DNA from: a virus
Lineage: Duplodnaviria; Heunggongvirae; Uroviricota; Caudoviricetes
Reading direction: 5' to 3' (one strand)
Length of the DNA stretch: 64,000 bases
IMG/VR virus record: IMGVR_UViG_3300031133_000383
Location: 122,635-186,634 of that record
Part shown: positions 2,590-23,994 of the stretch, one piece after another
Layout: every line of letters begins with the position of its first letter
Numbering within the stretch: the stretch's first letter is position 1
Translations under genes and position numbers: made by a program
Notes under the pieces: model-generated
What the model saw: the letters and a program-made list of their open reading frames with translations, nothing else
What the model was told of the DNA's origin: nothing
The model's database searches: none

Positions 2590-3551
2590 ATTTCGAGCAT
2601 TTTTAATACTAGTAATGTATTTTCAAATTTTTCTTTGTTTGATATATCGAGTGATAAGTTATAATTTTTTTCAATTCTCTCTTTTATTGTATCGAAAAAC
2701 TGACTTCTAATAAAACCATCTTTTTCTTTTATAAAAATATTTTTTTCAAAACATAATAGGTCACTTCTATTAGAGCCTATGTTTTCATATTTTTTCATCA
2801 TAAACATAAATTTTATTTTCTTTTTGTTTGTTTTTAGATTAATTCTTTTATCGACAATTAATTTAATAATAAAATCTTTCTTTAATGAGTAAGATACAAT
2901 TTTGTCATTTATCAAATAATCAACCAATGTCATTTGATAAGTAAACGTTTCAATTAATTCTTTAATGATCTGACTATTCTTGTATTCGTTGAAAATATAA
3001 TATTTATTGTTTTTGAAAAAAACAGAAATTTCATTTTTAATTTGTAGGATATCTTTTTCTTGCTTGAATTGTATATAATCAGTTGCACCTGTTGCTAAAT
3101 AAATAATATTGACTTTTATATTAAAGTAACCATTTGAATAAGTTCTTTTAAATCTGTACTCACCTATTTGTGCATCAAATATAAGTGTCTTATTCCATGA
3201 TTGCTCCTGTTTTTCTTGTAGAAAATATGTTTTTATAATGGTCAACTCATTCGAATCAAAAAGTACCTTGTCTGATTCATCATCCTTGAAAAAATACCAG
3301 CCTTCATTATGATTAAGTTTAAAACTCAATACAGCGTATTTTTCTCTATTTGCTTCATATTTTAAAAAAGCTAGTTTAAATTTTTGACAGGCAAGATAAG
3401 TTGGATATATATCTGGACAGCAATATTTAAATGTATTTTCATTAATTTTTAATACTCTGGTATTGTTTTCGTCAGGTATTGCAAAGATTCCATTATTAAT
3501 AAAATCTAAATGCATATTCTTGTCCAGATAATGCCTATTGATTAAATTCAA
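2586..3551 (-). CDS. hypothetical protein, C-terminal MxxPhi motif family
   Basis: 321 aa, AGGAG SD; ends TLLVLKMLEI. Confidence 0.8.
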   Translation of the reverse strand: MNLINRHYLDKNMHLDFINNGIFAIPDENNTRVLKINENTFKYCCPDIYPTYLACQKFKLAFLKYEANREKYAVLSFKLNHNEGWYFFKDDESDKVLFDSNELTIIKTYFLQEKQEQSWNKTLIFDAQIGEYRFKRTYSNGYFNIKVNIIYLATGATDYIQFKQEKDILQIKNEISVFFKNNKYYIFNEYKNSQIIKELIETFTYQMTLVDYLINDKIVSYSLKKDFIIKLIVDKRINLKTNKKKIKFMFMMKKYENIGSNRSDLLCFEKNIFIKEKDGFIRSQFFDTIKERIEKNYNLSLDISNKEKFENTLLVLKMLEI

Positions 3552-3681
3552 CTATTTTCTCCTTATACACTAAACATCTATACATAATATTTTCTTTTAT
3601 TTTTTTTAAAAATCAATATTCAATTGGTTTTTATTTATTTTCTTGTTATAATCCAGCATTAATTATTTAGGAGATTAACTA

Positions 3682-5208
3682 ATGTCTAAAATTACAACAG
3701 ATGATTGTAAAAATTTTTTGATGGAACATTATCCTGATTCTGGTAAATCTAAATGGAAACGAGTCAGTAAGTATAAAGATGATGTGGGATTGTGGTGCCG
3801 TGAATTCAATCATCCATCCGTAGGTGATATTACTATTATTGAAAATAATGGAACTTTGTCTTTGAAACAGACGGCTGTGCCAAATCCTATTGACATCAAA
3901 AACAATACAATTATTTTTCGTCAGTTTTCTAAAAAGGATAATACTGATGCAAAACGTTTGATTAAACGTTATATTGGTACTATTTATGGTGAAAATGAAG
4001 AAGATGAAGAAGAAGAAGAATTTATTCCACAGTCTACTCAAAAAGGATATGAAGCAATACCTAATCAAATCAACTACTTTTTTACCTTGTTGGATGAAGA
4101 GTATGAAGACCAAATGAAAAGGATTAATGAAAATAAAGACTATAATGCAAAATTAAACACATTCATACTTTATATTTATCCTAATCAAGAAGAAAATTAT
4201 GATCAGCATATCGGACCTTTGTTGGAAAATTTTTTGGGACCGCAGTTTAGCGAAGATACAGAATGCATTTTTTCTACTTCATTTGATGAGCCGATGTCAA
4301 TTAAAGACTTTGTACAGATGATGTCCAGTAAAGGATTTGTTTATGCATTTCTTGATTCTACTAATCCACAAGATAATGAGACTTGTTTATTAGCTGATAC
4401 CGTTAGGTCACTTGATTTTGTAACAGTTAAAGAAAGTACTATTGTCAAATCAGATGCTGATCTTCCAAAACTTTTTAAAGAATCGGTTGAAAGAGATGAT
4501 GTTGTTTGTTTGAAAGATTTGCTACGTCAAGGACTACCATTGGATACTTTGATTAATCGTATATCCCTACATTCTTATTGTATTGTTAATGACGCTCCAA
4601 ACTGTTTTAAACTTTTAGTCAATAATACACCTAACTTAGCAAAAGGAACTTTACGAGCAACAAATACCGTATGGTCTGATATGATAAATTTTGGACAGCA
4701 ACCTAGTAATTTTAACTATACTGAATATGTCTTTGAGCATGGTAATTTTGATTTTAGAGACGAAAATTATAATTTTAATCTAGACTTTTTGGAACTTATT
4801 ATTTCTCAGCAGTATTTGTTTGAGAAATTTAAATCAAAAAGTAATGATATTTATAGAGCGTTGGCTTGTTTATATTTTTGTATTCAAAACGAAAATATTT
4901 ATAATGTCTCATATATTGCGGAAGAAGCTGACAAAGCAATTGATCAGTATCCAGAAGTTGTAGGTGATTTAATTGATATTTCAATCGCATTTGGTAATAA
5001 TGCTATCAATATTTCTGATACATTGATGCAGAAACTTATTGACTCTGACAGGTTGAAAATTTCAGGTATTCGTTTTGAAGATTATATTATCAGAAGTTTA
5101 GATATTATTAAAAATAATAGACATCATCTTTCTGATTCTGACAAGCATTCTGGTATTCAGTTTTATACAAGCATATTGAAACGTATTCAAGATAAGTCTA
5201 AAATTTAG
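3682..5208 (+). CDS. hypothetical protein with acidic tract and possible ankyrin-like helical repeats
   Basis: 508 aa, AGGAG SD; EEDEEEEE tract; DDVVCLKDLLRQG / NDAPNCFKLLVNN resemble ankyrin helices (weak). Confidence 0.75.
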   Translation: MSKITTDDCKNFLMEHYPDSGKSKWKRVSKYKDDVGLWCREFNHPSVGDITIIENNGTLSLKQTAVPNPIDIKNNTIIFRQFSKKDNTDAKRLIKRYIGTIYGENEEDEEEEEFIPQSTQKGYEAIPNQINYFFTLLDEEYEDQMKRINENKDYNAKLNTFILYIYPNQEENYDQHIGPLLENFLGPQFSEDTECIFSTSFDEPMSIKDFVQMMSSKGFVYAFLDSTNPQDNETCLLADTVRSLDFVTVKESTIVKSDADLPKLFKESVERDDVVCLKDLLRQGLPLDTLINRISLHSYCIVNDAPNCFKLLVNNTPNLAKGTLRATNTVWSDMINFGQQPSNFNYTEYVFEHGNFDFRDENYNFNLDFLELIISQQYLFEKFKSKSNDIYRALACLYFCIQNENIYNVSYIAEEADKAIDQYPEVVGDLIDISIAFGNNAINISDTLMQKLIDSDRLKISGIRFEDYIIRSLDIIKNNRHHLSDSDKHSGIQFYTSILKRIQDKSKI

Positions 5209-12420: not shown

Positions 12421-12894
12421 ATGTTGAAATCAATCACTAAAATTAACACACAAAACAGTTCTGATTTTTTAACTGGACCTATTCAATTCGGTACTGATTG
12501 GCCGGGAACTTTTTTTACACTTTCTTACATCAATAATCTTGTGGTTAGTCATGATATTGAAGATATACAACCGGTTATTAATGCATTTGATTTTTCAAAG
12601 AACTATATCAATAGTTTCTTAAAGGAATTTATAGAGGTGGGATCATTATTTGAAAATGATGAAAGCTCACAAGACATTGCTTCACGTATACAAATAATTG
12701 AAGTTGATACATTAATGGTAGGTGACAGCACTGTTCAACGTGTTGAAACAGGTATGGTCAATATCAATAATCAAATAGGTTATTTTATTAGAGGCGATAA
12801 TGCAGGATATCTTTTGCAACTATTGTCTATAAAAAAAGACTTGTCACTGGTAGAAAACCAACTTAGATGCTCTTTATCTGGCTGTATCGTTTAA
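12421..12894 (+). CDS. hypothetical protein with internally duplicated motif
   Basis: TGPIQFGTDWPGTFF and RVETGMVNINNQIGYFIRGDNA look like two copies of one unit. Confidence 0.7.
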   Translation: MLKSITKINTQNSSDFLTGPIQFGTDWPGTFFTLSYINNLVVSHDIEDIQPVINAFDFSKNYINSFLKEFIEVGSLFENDESSQDIASRIQIIEVDTLMVGDSTVQRVETGMVNINNQIGYFIRGDNAGYLLQLLSIKKDLSLVENQLRCSLSGCIV

Positions 12895-13653
12895 TCTATC
12901 ATCATAAAAATCAAATATATTCTTTGATATAACACCTTGATTATATTTTTCTTCAAGATCATCTTTGAATGTTGTCTTATTGATTTTTATTAAAGTTTCT
13001 ATATTTTTAATAATGAACTCTTTATTGAATGATTGGTTGTTTATAGAACCTAATGAATTTTTTAAATTTTTATCAATTAGATTTGTTTTATCGTCGTCAG
13101 ACATTATAAAATATTCATTTAATATAAAAGGCCGATTAAATTCATCAAAACATTCATATTGAGATATACAGCCATTAAAAACATCTAAAAATTCTAATAA
13201 CTCATGACTTTCCAATGGAAGAAGATAATCTAAAATATTACTAATACCAGTAGTAGTCATAGTGGTTAACACTGCATGTCCTGTTTGACAGGCTAACAAA
13301 ATATCAGGTATATTTTCATTATTATTTATTTCTTCTATACAGATTATGTTTTGATTTGTTCTGAATGCTGTTTGAATATGTTTATCTAATTCATCTTTTG
13401 ATTCTGACTGCATGGTTCTGATACTTAGATTACTGGGAAATGAACTTGATCTGAAACGATTCGTTTTTTCTAATAAAAGGATTCTTTTAGCAATATTGTG
13501 ATGAAGATAATGATAAATCATAGACCCCATTAATTCAGTTCTATTGTATCCACCAATCACAATAAATCCTGATACTTTCTTAAATATATAGGAATCAAGT
13601 AGTTTTTGAGGTAGTTTTATACTAGTTTTTACATCAATTTGGGGATGAATCAT
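12874..13653 (-). CDS. degenerate PilT/DotB-like P-loop ATPase
   Basis: FRTNQNIICIEEIN and CQTGHAVLTTMTT match the Walker B and His-box regions; Walker A broken (GGYNRT). Confidence 0.65.
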   Translation of the reverse strand: MIHPQIDVKTSIKLPQKLLDSYIFKKVSGFIVIGGYNRTELMGSMIYHYLHHNIAKRILLLEKTNRFRSSSFPSNLSIRTMQSESKDELDKHIQTAFRTNQNIICIEEINNNENIPDILLACQTGHAVLTTMTTTGISNILDYLLPLESHELLEFLDVFNGCISQYECFDEFNRPFILNEYFIMSDDDKTNLIDKNLKNSLGSINNQSFNKEFIIKNIETLIKINKTTFKDDLEEKYNQGVISKNIFDFYDDRLNDTAR

Positions 13654-13777
13654 TTTATATTCCTCTTTTACATCATTATCATAATCATTTTGCTTTAATA
13701 AGTCAATTTCTTATATTTATCTTGTAAGTTATCTATATAAATGATATCATTTATTTTATTTTAATAAGGGGCTTTTT

Positions 13778-15340
13778 ATGAAAAAAATGCAGGAATGGGC
13801 AATTCATACGACACTTGATAATGGATGGGCGACACATCAATTTAATCAGTTTATTTCAAATGCAGATCAATCAGAATTTTTACGTTCTCAGATTCCATTT
13901 TTTTATGCTGTTCAAGCTTTTCCACAAGCATTGTCTAAACTAGCCAGTCAAATTGAAACCAGTGAGCAACGCTGGTTGGTCATTGAAAATCTGTATGAGG
14001 AACACGGACAAGGAAATTTTAAGAAATTCCATACATCAACATTTAAAGAGTTTCTAACAGTATTGGGTTGGAATCAGGAATTATATAGAAATCCATGGGT
14101 TACCGAATGGGTTGATAATGTTTTATCAAAAGACCTATCTGCCGGTGAATATGCTGCTTATCTAGCAGGGATTGAATTTGCTTATGCTCCCATTAGTAAA
14201 ACAATTGCTGACCACATGAACCATTTAGGTTTGATTACTAAACAAAATCACTATGGAAATCATGCTGATCTCGATTGGCTTCATGGTGCTGAATTATTGG
14301 ATGTAGCCTTAAGTCTTTCAGAATCCTATGACAAATTACAGGATGTTTTTAAGCAAGCTCAATATGAATTTTTAGATTTATATTCTCATCTTATCATACC
14401 GACAGCATTTGAAATGAAAGAAATCAATAAAGAAGATATTTCATTTTATTACACTCGCGAAGACAGTGGACCAGAAATATTTGCTGTTTCTAATGCCATT
14501 AATTCAGGAGTTTCAAAACCCTCAATCTTGATGATTGGTTCGGGTGGAGAAACACTTATTGATTTATTGAGTATTCCTAGACCTCTAAATATTGATGTCA
14601 TTGATATGAATTCACATCAATTGGAACTTTGTAAATTTAAAATTTCACAATTATTATCGTTTGATACTTATTCAAATATTGACACTCATTTTTCTGGCAA
14701 GTTTGAAAAGATTTTTTCTCGTATCAGAGAAATTTTCAATTATCAAGGTGAGGATAAGCTTTCTACTTATATTGCAACATCTTCACAAGGACAACAGAAA
14801 CTAAAATACATTGTAAACAACCTGTTTTCCAATGAAAATTTGGCACATGTTTTTAGTGATAGAGCAACAAAATTCTCATCAGAAAGCTTTGCTGATCATT
14901 TTTATAATGTGTTTGTAAAAGCTTGTCAAAATTTCAGACAAAGCCGATCTACAGCAAAAAATATTTTCAATATCATTGATGGTGAAGATATAACGCTATC
15001 AAAACATATGCTAGACGCTTTTAATCTTTATTATCATAATCATTATGTAACTTATACTTTGGGCAATTTTGAAAGTTTAAAGTCAAATGAAAAATATGAT
15101 ATTGTTTCTATCTCAAATATTGGCGACTGGATGCCAATTGAACAGTATAAAGAGTTGTTAGCATCTGTTCGCGAAAAATTGAAACCTAATGGTGTAGTTG
15201 TTGCTAGAAAATTATTAGGCGACTATAGTTTAGAGCAAATTTTACGTGAAAATAGTTTTAAATGTCGTAATATAACTGACAATACTTTCTTTTATTCCGA
15301 AGTCTGCTTGGGATCTTTTGCCGGAAGATCTGGCAATTGA
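13778..15340 (+). CDS. fusion: heme-oxygenase-like diiron oxidase (CADD/PqqC-like) + DUF3419/BtaA-like SAM-dependent transferase
   Basis: ENLYEEHG..H, GIE, HYGNHADLDWLH; C-terminal YTRED, MIGSGGE, IDMNSHQL, SISNIGDWM. Confidence 0.75.
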   Translation: MKKMQEWAIHTTLDNGWATHQFNQFISNADQSEFLRSQIPFFYAVQAFPQALSKLASQIETSEQRWLVIENLYEEHGQGNFKKFHTSTFKEFLTVLGWNQELYRNPWVTEWVDNVLSKDLSAGEYAAYLAGIEFAYAPISKTIADHMNHLGLITKQNHYGNHADLDWLHGAELLDVALSLSESYDKLQDVFKQAQYEFLDLYSHLIIPTAFEMKEINKEDISFYYTREDSGPEIFAVSNAINSGVSKPSILMIGSGGETLIDLLSIPRPLNIDVIDMNSHQLELCKFKISQLLSFDTYSNIDTHFSGKFEKIFSRIREIFNYQGEDKLSTYIATSSQGQQKLKYIVNNLFSNENLAHVFSDRATKFSSESFADHFYNVFVKACQNFRQSRSTAKNIFNIIDGEDITLSKHMLDAFNLYYHNHYVTYTLGNFESLKSNEKYDIVSISNIGDWMPIEQYKELLASVREKLKPNGVVVARKLLGDYSLEQILRENSFKCRNITDNTFFYSEVCLGSFAGRSGN

Positions 15341-15386
15341 TTACCGTAAATATGTCAGTTCTAAATATAGACTATAGGATAACATA

Positions 15387-16193
15387 ATGCATTTTTCAAA
15401 AAAACTACATATTAAAGTTTTAAATCTGAATGATTCGTTGGTTCGAAACAAATACAGTCACCTTCTGATGGAATATGAAAATATTTTCACTTATCCATTG
15501 GGGTCAAGATCTTTTCATATTCGCCATGGTTTTAGTGGTAATTATGACTACTTTTCTTTCTTTGAGCAAATGGGTGAAGTTCACTATATTGTAGCAGAAC
15601 ATGATAGTTGTTTAGTAGCGGCGGGGTGTGCCATATTACGAAATATTAATAACGAAAAAGTGTGGTACTTGTGTGATTTCAAATTAACTCCTGAATATCG
15701 CGGCAAAGGTATTCTTGAAAAGATGTTTAGAAAGTATGTCTTTTCTTTTTATTTGAAATCGCAAAAAATGTTTTTTGTGAACATGAGCACTATTCAGGGC
15801 AATGGTCTTATCAAAAAGGCTTCAAAAATATTCAAGATATTTGGATTAAAAAAAGAAAATCTGTACTTTTTTGAATGGAGTAAGAATGATGTAATACATA
15901 CAGACATAGATTTGACTCAATTTGTTATTTTAACAAATGCTCATAAAAAAGATATTGTAATTGATGATAAATCTTATCCTATTTATCATCTTGTTCAAAA
16001 AAACTCTTATATTGATTTAACAAAATTTGAGAAAATTCATATAAACGACATTTCTGACACGGATACGTTGATGTATTGTGGCGTGAAAAATAGTATCATC
16101 GATCACTTGCTGGTTAATCAACAACCAGCAACTATTGGCAGCTTTGTTTCTCATCGATTTAATACTAGTTTTTTTTCAAGTGCCGAAATCTAA
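15387..16193 (+). CDS. GNAT-family N-acyltransferase
   Basis: motif A WYLCDFKLTPEYRGKGI; 46 nt downstream of the fusion gene. Confidence 0.75.
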   Translation: MHFSKKLHIKVLNLNDSLVRNKYSHLLMEYENIFTYPLGSRSFHIRHGFSGNYDYFSFFEQMGEVHYIVAEHDSCLVAAGCAILRNINNEKVWYLCDFKLTPEYRGKGILEKMFRKYVFSFYLKSQKMFFVNMSTIQGNGLIKKASKIFKIFGLKKENLYFFEWSKNDVIHTDIDLTQFVILTNAHKKDIVIDDKSYPIYHLVQKNSYIDLTKFEKIHINDISDTDTLMYCGVKNSIIDHLLVNQQPATIGSFVSHRFNTSFFSSAEI

Positions 16194-16200
16194 ATTTTTG

Positions 16201-16229
16201 TTGACAATTTTTTGATAACATTAGATAAT
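16201..16229 (+). promoter_or_regulatory. sigma70 promoter
   Basis: TTGACA-N17-GATAAT. Confidence 0.6.
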
Positions 16230-22503: not shown

Positions 22504-23994
22504 ATGTCAAAAATTGTCATAGTCCATTCACTGTCTGAAAATAAATTAACACAAGCTATTAAACTTGGAGGTATGCCTCTTCCAAGTATAGCAGCAATGA
22601 ATCCAGATAATGAGTTTACCAGATTTGGGAATATAACGTTTATCGTAAAACCAGAATCAGTTAACCCTAAAGATAAAAAAAATTTATTTTTTGACAGAGA
22701 TATTTTTTCTCAACGTATTCCTACATTATATTACGATGTTGACAAAAAGCAGTTTGATAGTTTTTACAACAAAGTCGAGCAATATATTAAAAACAGACAT
22801 GAATTAAGTACGCTTTTTTCAATGTATGATGTAGATTCTTTACGTAGAAAACCTTCTGAATATATTCAAAATCGTATATTATCTGACTCTATTATCAAAA
22901 TGATGTTTGTCGATACTTTTGATCCATCCTATGAGTTACCTTATAAAAAAGCAAAGTTAGAATCCGATTTATCAAATGACACTATTTTTAAAAATTTCAT
23001 GATATCTCAACGATTAGATATCAAATATGATGATACATTTGCAGTTGAAATAAAATCAGCCATTGAGCGACGTTATTCTTTTTATAAAGATGCTGTAGGA
23101 ACAACTATTGCAAATGATATTAAGCATTCATATGAAAATTCTCTTTTCTCATATGATGGCAAAATAAATACACACTCAAGAGAAATTTTAAATATTATCA
23201 ATGATATTCCAACCTATGCGGATAATGCCTTATCTGTTGATCTTGAATTATTGAGAAAGCAGATAAATTCTATTGTTGAGAATAATCAGCATGCATATAA
23301 AGACTTTGTAGATTCATTAACGGACGGGGTATTTAAAAACCCACATTTAAAAAATGGAAATCGAAAGGTTGAATACACATTAGAAAATATAGAAAAATTT
23401 ATGTTACGTCAAAAAGTAACAGCTATTGAAGAAACATCAGATACCAGTATTGGTAAAATATCTTCGTCTTATGCAACTCAGTTTAAGTCATATGATGAAA
23501 TGATTCATTCGTCATCTATTCTAGATACTATTGAAGATAGAAGTTCTGCTATGGATGTTATTCATAGAGAAATATTCAATCTGACTGAACACATGATGCC
23601 TTATTTTGATGGTTCTCGCTTTTTTGAGGCTCAGGAAAGTTTATCTTTATCATTACATAATATAAAAAATCATGAACAGTTCATTAGTAAATTGAACAGT
23701 AATGGCTTTAATAGTAGTGAAATACCTATGGATTTAATAGATTCAGGATTTAAAATTGTAAATAAAATTAAAAACTTAACAAATCATTATTTTGAGGGAA
23801 AACCACAAAAAGTATTAAATTTTAAAGATTTTTCTGCTGTTGTCTTGCCAGTTAATACATCGCCAGATATTATTGATTATTTAAAACAACATATGAAAGT
23901 TCATCAATATTCAAAGCCTTCTGAAAAAATCGAAATTTTCAAAAAATATTCTTTTGATGAGTCTCCAAAAGTTATTAAAAAAATAAAGCCATAA
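22504..23994 (+). CDS. protein resembling a domain of phage/plasmid large polyvalent proteins
   Basis: IVHSLSENKL..LGGMPLPSIA..FGNITF and YFEGKP..F.AVVLP motifs (recalled similarity, not searched). Confidence 0.6.
   Translation: MSKIVIVHSLSENKLTQAIKLGGMPLPSIAAMNPDNEFTRFGNITFIVKPESVNPKDKKNLFFDRDIFSQRIPTLYYDVDKKQFDSFYNKVEQYIKNRHELSTLFSMYDVDSLRRKPSEYIQNRILSDSIIKMMFVDTFDPSYELPYKKAKLESDLSNDTIFKNFMISQRLDIKYDDTFAVEIKSAIERRYSFYKDAVGTTIANDIKHSYENSLFSYDGKINTHSREILNIINDIPTYADNALSVDLELLRKQINSIVENNQHAYKDFVDSLTDGVFKNPHLKNGNRKVEYTLENIEKFMLRQKVTAIEETSDTSIGKISSSYATQFKSYDEMIHSSSILDTIEDRSSAMDVIHREIFNLTEHMMPYFDGSRFFEAQESLSLSLHNIKNHEQFISKLNSNGFNSSEIPMDLIDSGFKIVNKIKNLTNHYFEGKPQKVLNFKDFSAVVLPVNTSPDIIDYLKQHMKVHQYSKPSEKIEIFKKYSFDESPKVIKKIKP

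Follow-up and report, generated by a model that had tools for sequence, protein, structure and literature searches.

A two-gene cassette joining a heme-oxygenase-like dimetal oxidase, a DUF3419/BtaA-fold domain and an N-myristoyltransferase-like GNAT on a megabase-element relative

Among the heme-oxygenase-like dimetal oxidases (HDOs), CADD uses Tyr27 as a sacrificial residue and Lys152 as the N-donor, and the transfer of a 3-amino-3-carboxypropyl (acp) group by BtaA is, to our knowledge, the sole characterised function of the DUF3419 family. DUF3419 is predictive of DGTS in algae (PMC6642084). The HDOs are defined by an E-H-E-H-D-H dimetal motif, and one of them, FlcE, converts an amino acid into an oxime and CO2 (PMC11363339). 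Enzymes that transfer acp are rare. In molluscs, transfer of acp onto an N-acyl tyrosinol has been demonstrated, with oxidation to a nitrile proposed as a later step, and predicting acp transferases from sequence is difficult (PMC11869996). Finally, N-myristoyltransferases (NMTs) employ their C-terminal carboxylate as the catalytic base (PMC7048800).

The window analysed here is a stretch of 64,000 nucleotides (positions 122,635 to 186,634 of IMG/VR record IMGVR_UViG_3300031133_000383). It carries two ORFs on the same strand, separated by 46 nt, exactly where the original prediction had placed a fusion protein and a downstream GNAT (Table 1). Since the gene upstream of ORF1 is divergent and a strong promoter match precedes the next gene, the cassette is probably limited to ORF1 and ORF2. 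Consensus promoter matches of the class to which the candidate upstream of ORF1 belongs number 23, against 16.6 +/- 3.9 expected. The GC content of ORF1 (0.32) and ORF2 (0.30) compares with 0.31 +/- 0.04 for the element, and variants of ORF1 in another sample comprise 10 synonymous and 4 non-synonymous changes (pN/pS ~0.1). Neither protein has a transmembrane stretch. A single metatranscriptome yielded one contig of 234 nt, too little to demonstrate expression.

Table 1. Features of the cassette and of its surroundings, in window positions
Feature	Position	Strand	Description
Truncated PilT/DotB-like ATPase	12874-13653	-	Walker A not intact; divergent from the cassette
Candidate sigma70 promoter	13722..13750	+	Extended -10; consensus match only
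ORF1	13778-15340	+	520 aa; HDO fused to a DUF3419/BtaA-fold domain
ORF1 N-domain	13778..14398	+	aa 1-207; CADD-like HDO
ORF1 C-domain	14399..15340	+	aa 208-520; DUF3419/BtaA-fold class I SAM-binding domain with helical insert
ORF2	15387-16193	+	268 aa; tandem-GNAT, NMT-like acyltransferase
Promoter match of the next gene	16201..16229	+	11/12; outside the cassette
Protein with PBECR5 nuclease domain	22504-23994

The two domains of ORF1

The N-terminal domain is matched by Pfam Haem_oxygenas_2 (PF14518, E 1e-14, above the cut-off), and the AlphaFold model of ORF1 reaches a pLDDT of 95 and a pTM of 0.92. Its nearest PDB structure is CADD (8va9, Z 22.9, rmsd 2.5, 200 residues aligned), followed by HrmI (Z 20.7), BesC (18.2), FlcD (17.9) and HamA (17.8). 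The metal ligands of CADD (E81/H88/E142/H174/D178/H181) map one to one onto E75/H85/E133/H162/D166/H169 of ORF1, which are invariant in an alignment of 56 full-length homologues of the fusion and kept in 26-27 of 27 sequences spanning all arrangements. The CADD-type pattern noticed at the outset (EE..H, E, H-x3-D-x2-H) thus holds for the six ligands, but the first Glu of EE..H varies. Further residues characteristic of the family are H76, H158, R65 and N71. Combining a modelled seven-helix heme-oxygenase-like fold with the E-H-E-H-D-H motif, the domain is a member of the HDO superfamily, with predicted metal loading and O2 activation. Because its nearest relatives, CADD, HrmI, BesC, FlcD and HamA, differ in chemistry, the reaction is not fixed by this assignment.

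Two closer identities were considered and rejected. Against the CADD pABA synthase model (TIGR04305), ORF1 scores 23.3 bits for a cut-off of 200, and its split relatives 21-82 bits; moreover, neither Tyr27 nor Lys152 is retained, the first position being N23 in ORF1 and Phe in most relatives, the second T142 in ORF1 and variable elsewhere. As for PqqC/TenA, the structural scores are lower and the dimetal ligand set of ORF1 is complete.

The C-terminal domain had been described as DUF3419/BtaA-like, and this assignment is confirmed by a match to DUF3419 (PF11899, E 1.4e-12, 48 bits for a cut-off of 28.2) and by ESM Atlas models of DUF3419 proteins, which superpose over ~290 residues (TM 0.79-0.81, feature score 0.98) and include chlorophyte clusters with the BTA1 architecture (DUF3419 plus methyltransferase). 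The domain displays F223..R-E-D229, S-G-G 255-257, D276-x-N278-x2-Q281, G307-x-F-E310, S-N-x2-D-W 446-451, R477 and D501..Y506. All BtaA-family motif blocks (xED, S-x-G, D-x-N-x2-Q, D-W, R, D..Y) are hence kept, and the subfamily departs from BtaA at two points: R-E-D replaces W-E-D, and S-N replaces L-D ahead of D-W. The PDB matches of the domain included no known DUF3419 structure.

In a tree of 102 DUF3419 domains, whose deep nodes are weakly supported, the 17 BtaA sequences whose genes adjoin btaB group together in a single clade (SH 0.999), and ORF1 lies outside it. The flanks of ORF1 in the window are the PilT-like ORF and the GNAT, with no adjacent or fused btaB, and a BtaB search gave matches at loci L091 and L100-L118 only and none at the trio loci then scanned. 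ORF1 was accordingly rejected as a BtaA-type DGTS synthase proper, and a DUF3419 match alone does not imply DGTS synthesis. The names "pyrroloquinoline-quinone synthase" and "SAM:diacylglycerol acp transferase" given to these proteins in databases are probably wrong. A DGTS-like membrane glycerolipid, with acp transferred onto diacylglycerol, its amine N-acylated instead of trimethylated and the head group or chain oxidised by the diiron domain, would agree with the BtaA/BTA1 fold and motifs, with the predictive value of DUF3419 for algal DGTS (PMC6642084) and with the long acyl chains that NMT-like GNATs accept. We nevertheless regard it as unlikely in view of the separate clade, the missing BtaB neighbour, a shorter helical insert (~300 aa in total versus 390-400 aa in BtaA), the lack of any transmembrane stretch and a gene context in which no sign of phosphate starvation was seen.

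DUF3419 genes adjoin acyl-chain genes in other contexts as well. On plasmids of Xylella and Deefgea, members of a separate DUF3419 clade adjoin a different HDO and a FeeM-like N-acyltransferase, and the SAM decarboxylase SpeD joins this group once, in Deefgea. On the Xylella fastidiosa plasmid pXF-CO33 (NZ_CP135133.1, L090:4646-12406), an eight-gene operon encodes a FeeM/LuxI-like protein, an HDO, a DUF3419 protein, an Asp/Asn beta-hydroxylase, a PaiB/FMN-binding protein, a FemAB-like GNAT, a protein of unknown type and a transferase-family protein. The PaiB/FMN-binding protein belongs to the family of N-N-forming piperazate synthases, and the operon looks like an uncharacterised natural-product cluster of this plant pathogen. 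The Deefgea piscis plasmid group (L092:4547-9067) comprises FeeM-like, HDO, DUF3419, SpeD, ABM monooxygenase and serine hydrolase genes and is flanked by IS elements; a relative (L149:5536-8403) has an HDO, a DUF3419 and a 303-aa gene. From the reading of their ORFs, other non-BtaA DUF3419 clades (L119-L124, L089, L150, L148) also sit in lipid-like contexts, with PEP-synthase-like and kinase-like genes, KAS III/SDR/MBL/CoF synthetase genes, acyl-CoA dehydrogenase, fatty-acyl-AMP ligase and FeeM-like genes.

A plain N-, O- or S-methyltransferase tailoring the product of the GNAT or HDO is the least probable of the readings considered, and in our view highly unlikely. The best PDB matches of the C-domain are indeed small-molecule methyltransferases such as TmtA and OxaG (Z 16-17), accompanied by weak Methyltransf Pfam matches, but PDB methyltransferases (Z up to 17) fit the Rossmann core only, over ~160-170 of ~300 residues, as against ~290 at TM 0.8 for DUF3419 models. 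Furthermore, the SpeD gene adjoining a related DUF3419-HDO operon points to chemistry of the C3-N chain of SAM and not to methylation. With acp transfer as the one reaction characterised for DUF3419, all motif blocks kept and SpeD adjoining the related operon, the C-domain probably transfers acp or aminopropyl and not methyl; its position outside the BtaA clade and its two motif changes count against an acp transfer.

The tandem GNAT encoded by ORF2

The GNAT predicted downstream of the fusion is present, with a PF00583 match (E 1e-5, above the cut-off), but it is not a single small GNAT: its model (pLDDT 91) is two-lobed and NMT-like. Having the GNAT fold and an R-x-x-G acyl-CoA loop (R-G-K-G 105-108), ORF2 belongs to the GNAT superfamily; F43, G63, Y94, D97 and H201 are family residues, and the chain ends at I268. 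Its best structural matches are tandem GNATs and NMTs (Z 11-13). The NMT matches are modest (Z 11.7-11.8, within ~1 of other tandem GNATs), identity to NMT is 7-10% and there is no NMT Pfam match. Residue 268 of ORF2 nevertheless aligns to the last residue, 455, of yeast NMT (2p6e, Z 11.7, rmsd 4.0, 219 residues aligned), and ORF2 is much shorter than NMT (268 versus ~400 aa).

The C-terminal residue is I, V, L or M in 79 of 81 members of the family, mostly within S/T-x-E/D-I, and the other two are apparently frameshifted. The GNAT occupies the last position in each of the five triple fusions, an arrangement which leaves its C-terminal end free. On the strength of these models and alignments, ORF2 would likely use an NMT-like C-terminal carboxylate as its base. 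An Ile-ending tag is found on 62 of the 274 proteins of the element; as a source of the GNAT tail it was rejected, the tail being common across phyla and devoid of Met at -4. In Veronia, a frameshift lies just ahead of the conserved tail (L009:9470-10290), and frameshifted or decayed copies of the cassette were seen at L015 and, with broken DUF3419 and GNAT genes, at L198 and L199.

Distribution of the cassette and the replicon carrying it

A gene-neighbourhood survey of the fusion, suggested with the original prediction, showed that the trio is recurrent. Relatives of ORF1 fall into 89 clusters, nearly all full-length fusions, and a profile search retrieved 111 proteins of the order HDO-DUF3419, 22 of the order DUF3419-HDO and 5 HDO-DUF3419-GNAT triple fusions; a dedicated search for longer GNAT fusions was empty, though the profile search had found these five. 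The three architectures occupy separate parts of the DUF3419 tree (weak deep nodes). In each of the ten full-length loci that were inspected first, among them those of Xenorhabdus, Colwellia, Veronia and Algibacillus, the fusion is followed by the GNAT; culturable holders are Veronia, Algibacillus, Shimazuella and Brevibacillus. Loci anchored on the GNAT have a DUF3419 neighbour in 19 cases out of 21, two of them decayed, with one near-identical pair in which the GNAT stands alone. Split forms occur in two chlamydial MAGs (GNAT, DUF3419, HDO) and in Bacillota, where a gene resembling a second GNAT precedes DUF3419, GNAT and HDO. Of 301 Myxococcota genomes, 11 have the split trio as neighbouring genes, in three orders and with the GNAT in 11/11. 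On giant-virus-like contigs the three genes lie side by side on opposite strands. In total, at least eight gene orders or fusions keep the three activities together, and the holders are Gammaproteobacteria, Myxococcota, Bacillota, Chlamydiota, megabase mobile elements, giant viruses and one eukaryote-like contig. The top viral structure matches are proteins of Yasminevirus and Satyrvirus, and among the named phyla in the Atlas cluster of the GNAT, Nucleocytoviricota is the most frequent.

Some loci deserve separate mention. The eukaryote-like contig (L143, from SRR21609248, 25% GC) is compact, carries DUF3419-HDO plus GNAT together with RPL13e, RPL24e, UDPGP, V-ATPase F and PIP5K genes, and could possibly reflect a transfer into a microsporidian or an amoeba. 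In Colwellia, Algibacillus and marine contigs (L007, L008, L010, L190, L196), the cassette is preceded by a YiiX/C92 permuted papain-like amidase, of a family acting on acyl-amides, and by a divergent XRE regulator, of which only the latter is present in Veronia. HDO-only loci (Saprospiraceae, Providencia and Streptomyces plasmids) were treated as other systems and left out. Among such relatives, Saprospiraceae and other Bacteroidota (L038-L084) hold a related HDO whose conserved operon apparently encodes an ABC transporter and lacks DUF3419 and GNAT. No full-length homologue was found in IMG/VR contigs or INPHARED phages, and PLSDB plasmids gave HDO-only matches.

The source record, classified as viral, is a linear contig of 437 kb with 31% GC and 26 tRNAs. 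On this record, which may be partial, neither Terminase_6N nor MTA nucleosidase (PF01048) had a match, and the only PilT/DotB-like ATPase found is degenerate; its slot is taken by a NADAR gene in two syntenic megabase relatives (L001 and L183). ARAGORN predictions elsewhere on the element (G000:C1) include a tRNA with a CUA anticodon (amber/Pyl-type) and another with a four-base anticodon loop, at 375947-376020 and 389162-389237, and an ART-PolyVal polyvalent protein is encoded at 3029-4927. The best-matching sequencing runs are phyllosphere metagenomes. The genes flanking the cassette are syntenic with a 1.28-Mb contig and the same block recurs on a 1.86-Mb contig, so that the cassette is an inherited part of a megabase-element family. 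A more distant cluster, formed by a Shigella flexneri record and 1.1-1.3-Mb contigs, probably corresponds to the pMEGA megaplasmids (10.1101/2025.09.30.679422); the cassette is not mentioned in the text of that preprint or in its accessible supplements. The location on a mobile element had been rightly predicted, but the cassette is not specific to such elements, as bacterial genome contigs and giant viruses have it too.

The same distribution bears on a modification of macromolecules (a protein N-terminus or side chain, tRNA or DNA) resembling diphthamide, acp3U or phage base hypermodification. In its favour, peptide termini are substrates of NMT-type GNATs (PMC7048800), giant elements and giant viruses with many translation genes commonly carry the cassette, and it has no exporter gene. 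However, no nucleic-acid-binding domain is present, no conserved target or precursor-peptide gene occurs across 35 loci (ORFs of at least 90 aa), the known RNA acp transferases belong to other families (PMC10491745), and ordinary bacteria have chromosomal copies, which makes this reading quite unlikely. Over the same 35 loci and ORF sizes, no fourth gene is common to all and no shared transporter or precursor gene names the acceptor.

The lack of a fourth gene would suit a DUF3419 domain that cyclises or cleaves SAM by itself, to azetidine-2-carboxylate, homoserine lactone or ACC, since such a reaction needs no acceptor; the HDO would then tailor the product and the GNAT acetylate it for self-protection, and SAM depletion could blunt restriction. 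Fused or clustered protective GNATs have precedents, among them MccE, a fused one, and Mpr1. SAM cyclases with a methyltransferase fold also exist (PMC10491745). Even so, we consider this reading very unlikely: resistance GNATs are typically small single domains whereas ORF2 is two-lobed with a fixed C-terminus, the BtaA-type motifs of the C-domain are intact, and protection is a better fit for the second GNAT-like gene of the Bacillota operons. Self-protection in its pure form, which had been raised as an alternative role for the GNAT, loses ground because the GNAT is fused into triple proteins and is retained alongside its partners in giant viruses.

Proposed pathway and comparison with described systems

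The activities of ORF1 and ORF2 very probably serve one shared pathway, given that their genes have fused repeatedly, in three arrangements, and lie next to each other in every order. The three-activity route proposed from the window alone is strongly supported by this recurrent independent fusion and clustering. Our preferred reading of this pathway, N-acylation, acp transfer from SAM and diiron oxidation of the acp end to yield an acylated amino-acid-derived compound, is tentative as a whole and falls a little short of an even chance. The domains, residues, co-inheritance and fusions are observed, and the chemical steps, their order and the acceptor are inferred. The NMT-like GNAT would N-acylate an amine, probably with its own C-terminal carboxylate as base. 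The BtaA-fold domain would then move the acp group of SAM onto an O- or N-nucleophile with release of MTA, and the fused diiron domain would oxidise the product, most plausibly at the alpha-amino-acid end of acp, by N-hydroxylation, which decarboxylation to an oxime or nitrile may accompany. Indeed, the free alpha-amino acid left by acp transfer is the group oxidised by HDOs such as FlcE. Alternatively, N-hydroxylation may come first, with the GNAT closing a hydroxamate. The product would be an acylated amino-acid-derived small molecule or a lipo-amino acid. As the loci share no further genes, the inputs would be common metabolites, namely SAM, acyl-CoA or acyl-ACP, O2 and Fe/Mn, and the pathway would be self-contained. 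The most specific form of this proposal, in which the acp end becomes an oxime, nitrile or hydroxamate in a pathway common to bacteria, giant viruses, megabase elements and a microbial eukaryote, is doubtful; if true, it would represent a new HDO reaction, the first non-DGTS function of DUF3419 and a new class of compounds, used by giant elements against hosts or rivals.

The three folds are known, and their combination matches no pathway found in the literature searched. That literature, mostly outside subscription journals, contained no paper describing the HDO/DUF3419/GNAT trio and none combining heme oxygenase-like enzymes with 3-amino-3-carboxypropyl; judging by title or abstract, the literature naming DUF3419, PF11899 or BtaA-like proteins held none on the trio either. 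Each characterised HDO has brought new chemistry, and here an HDO is joined to an acp-type domain in a single confidently modelled, predicted-soluble protein with a single partner, 2.4 kb in total, so that the full pathway is testable from two genes. That the pathway occurs in several bacterial phyla, in giant viruses and on giant extrachromosomal elements suggests that it is of general use to mobile genomes.

Compared with described systems, the cassette is neither BtaAB nor CADD. The C-domain of ORF1 shares family, fold and SAM-site motif blocks with the BtaA/BtaB (BTA1) pathway to DGTS, but it is HDO-fused and GNAT-paired, lacks BtaB and belongs to a separate clade. CADD (CT610; PDB 1rcw, 8va9) is the closest solved structure to the N-domain and has in common with it the six metal ligands and the motifs of the first helix pair, whereas the ORF1 family has an extra His at the position of CADD Tyr170 and no folate context. 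FlcE/FlcD, HrmI, BesC, RohS, AetD and SznF possess the same fold and metal site and oxidise amino acids or amines, but coupling to DUF3419 is known for none of them and neither substrate nor reaction is transferable to ORF1. ORF2 resembles NMT and other tandem GNATs in its two-lobed fold and in a C-terminus that aligns with the catalytic one of NMT. The microcin C cluster (MccD/MccE) likewise combines a GNAT with an acp transferase and with a step acting on the acp end, but with enzymes of other families, a PLP decarboxylase in place of the diiron oxidase and a peptide-nucleotide substrate. Finally, the bur-ox route to bursatellin and oxazinin in molluscs (PMC11869996) possibly follows the same logic, an N-acylated amino-acid scaffold receiving from SAM an acp group whose end would then be oxidised to a nitrile; its enzymes, an NRPS formylation domain, an isonocardicin-synthase-like ACT and FMO/P450, are non-homologous to those of the cassette, and the resemblance is one of analogy.
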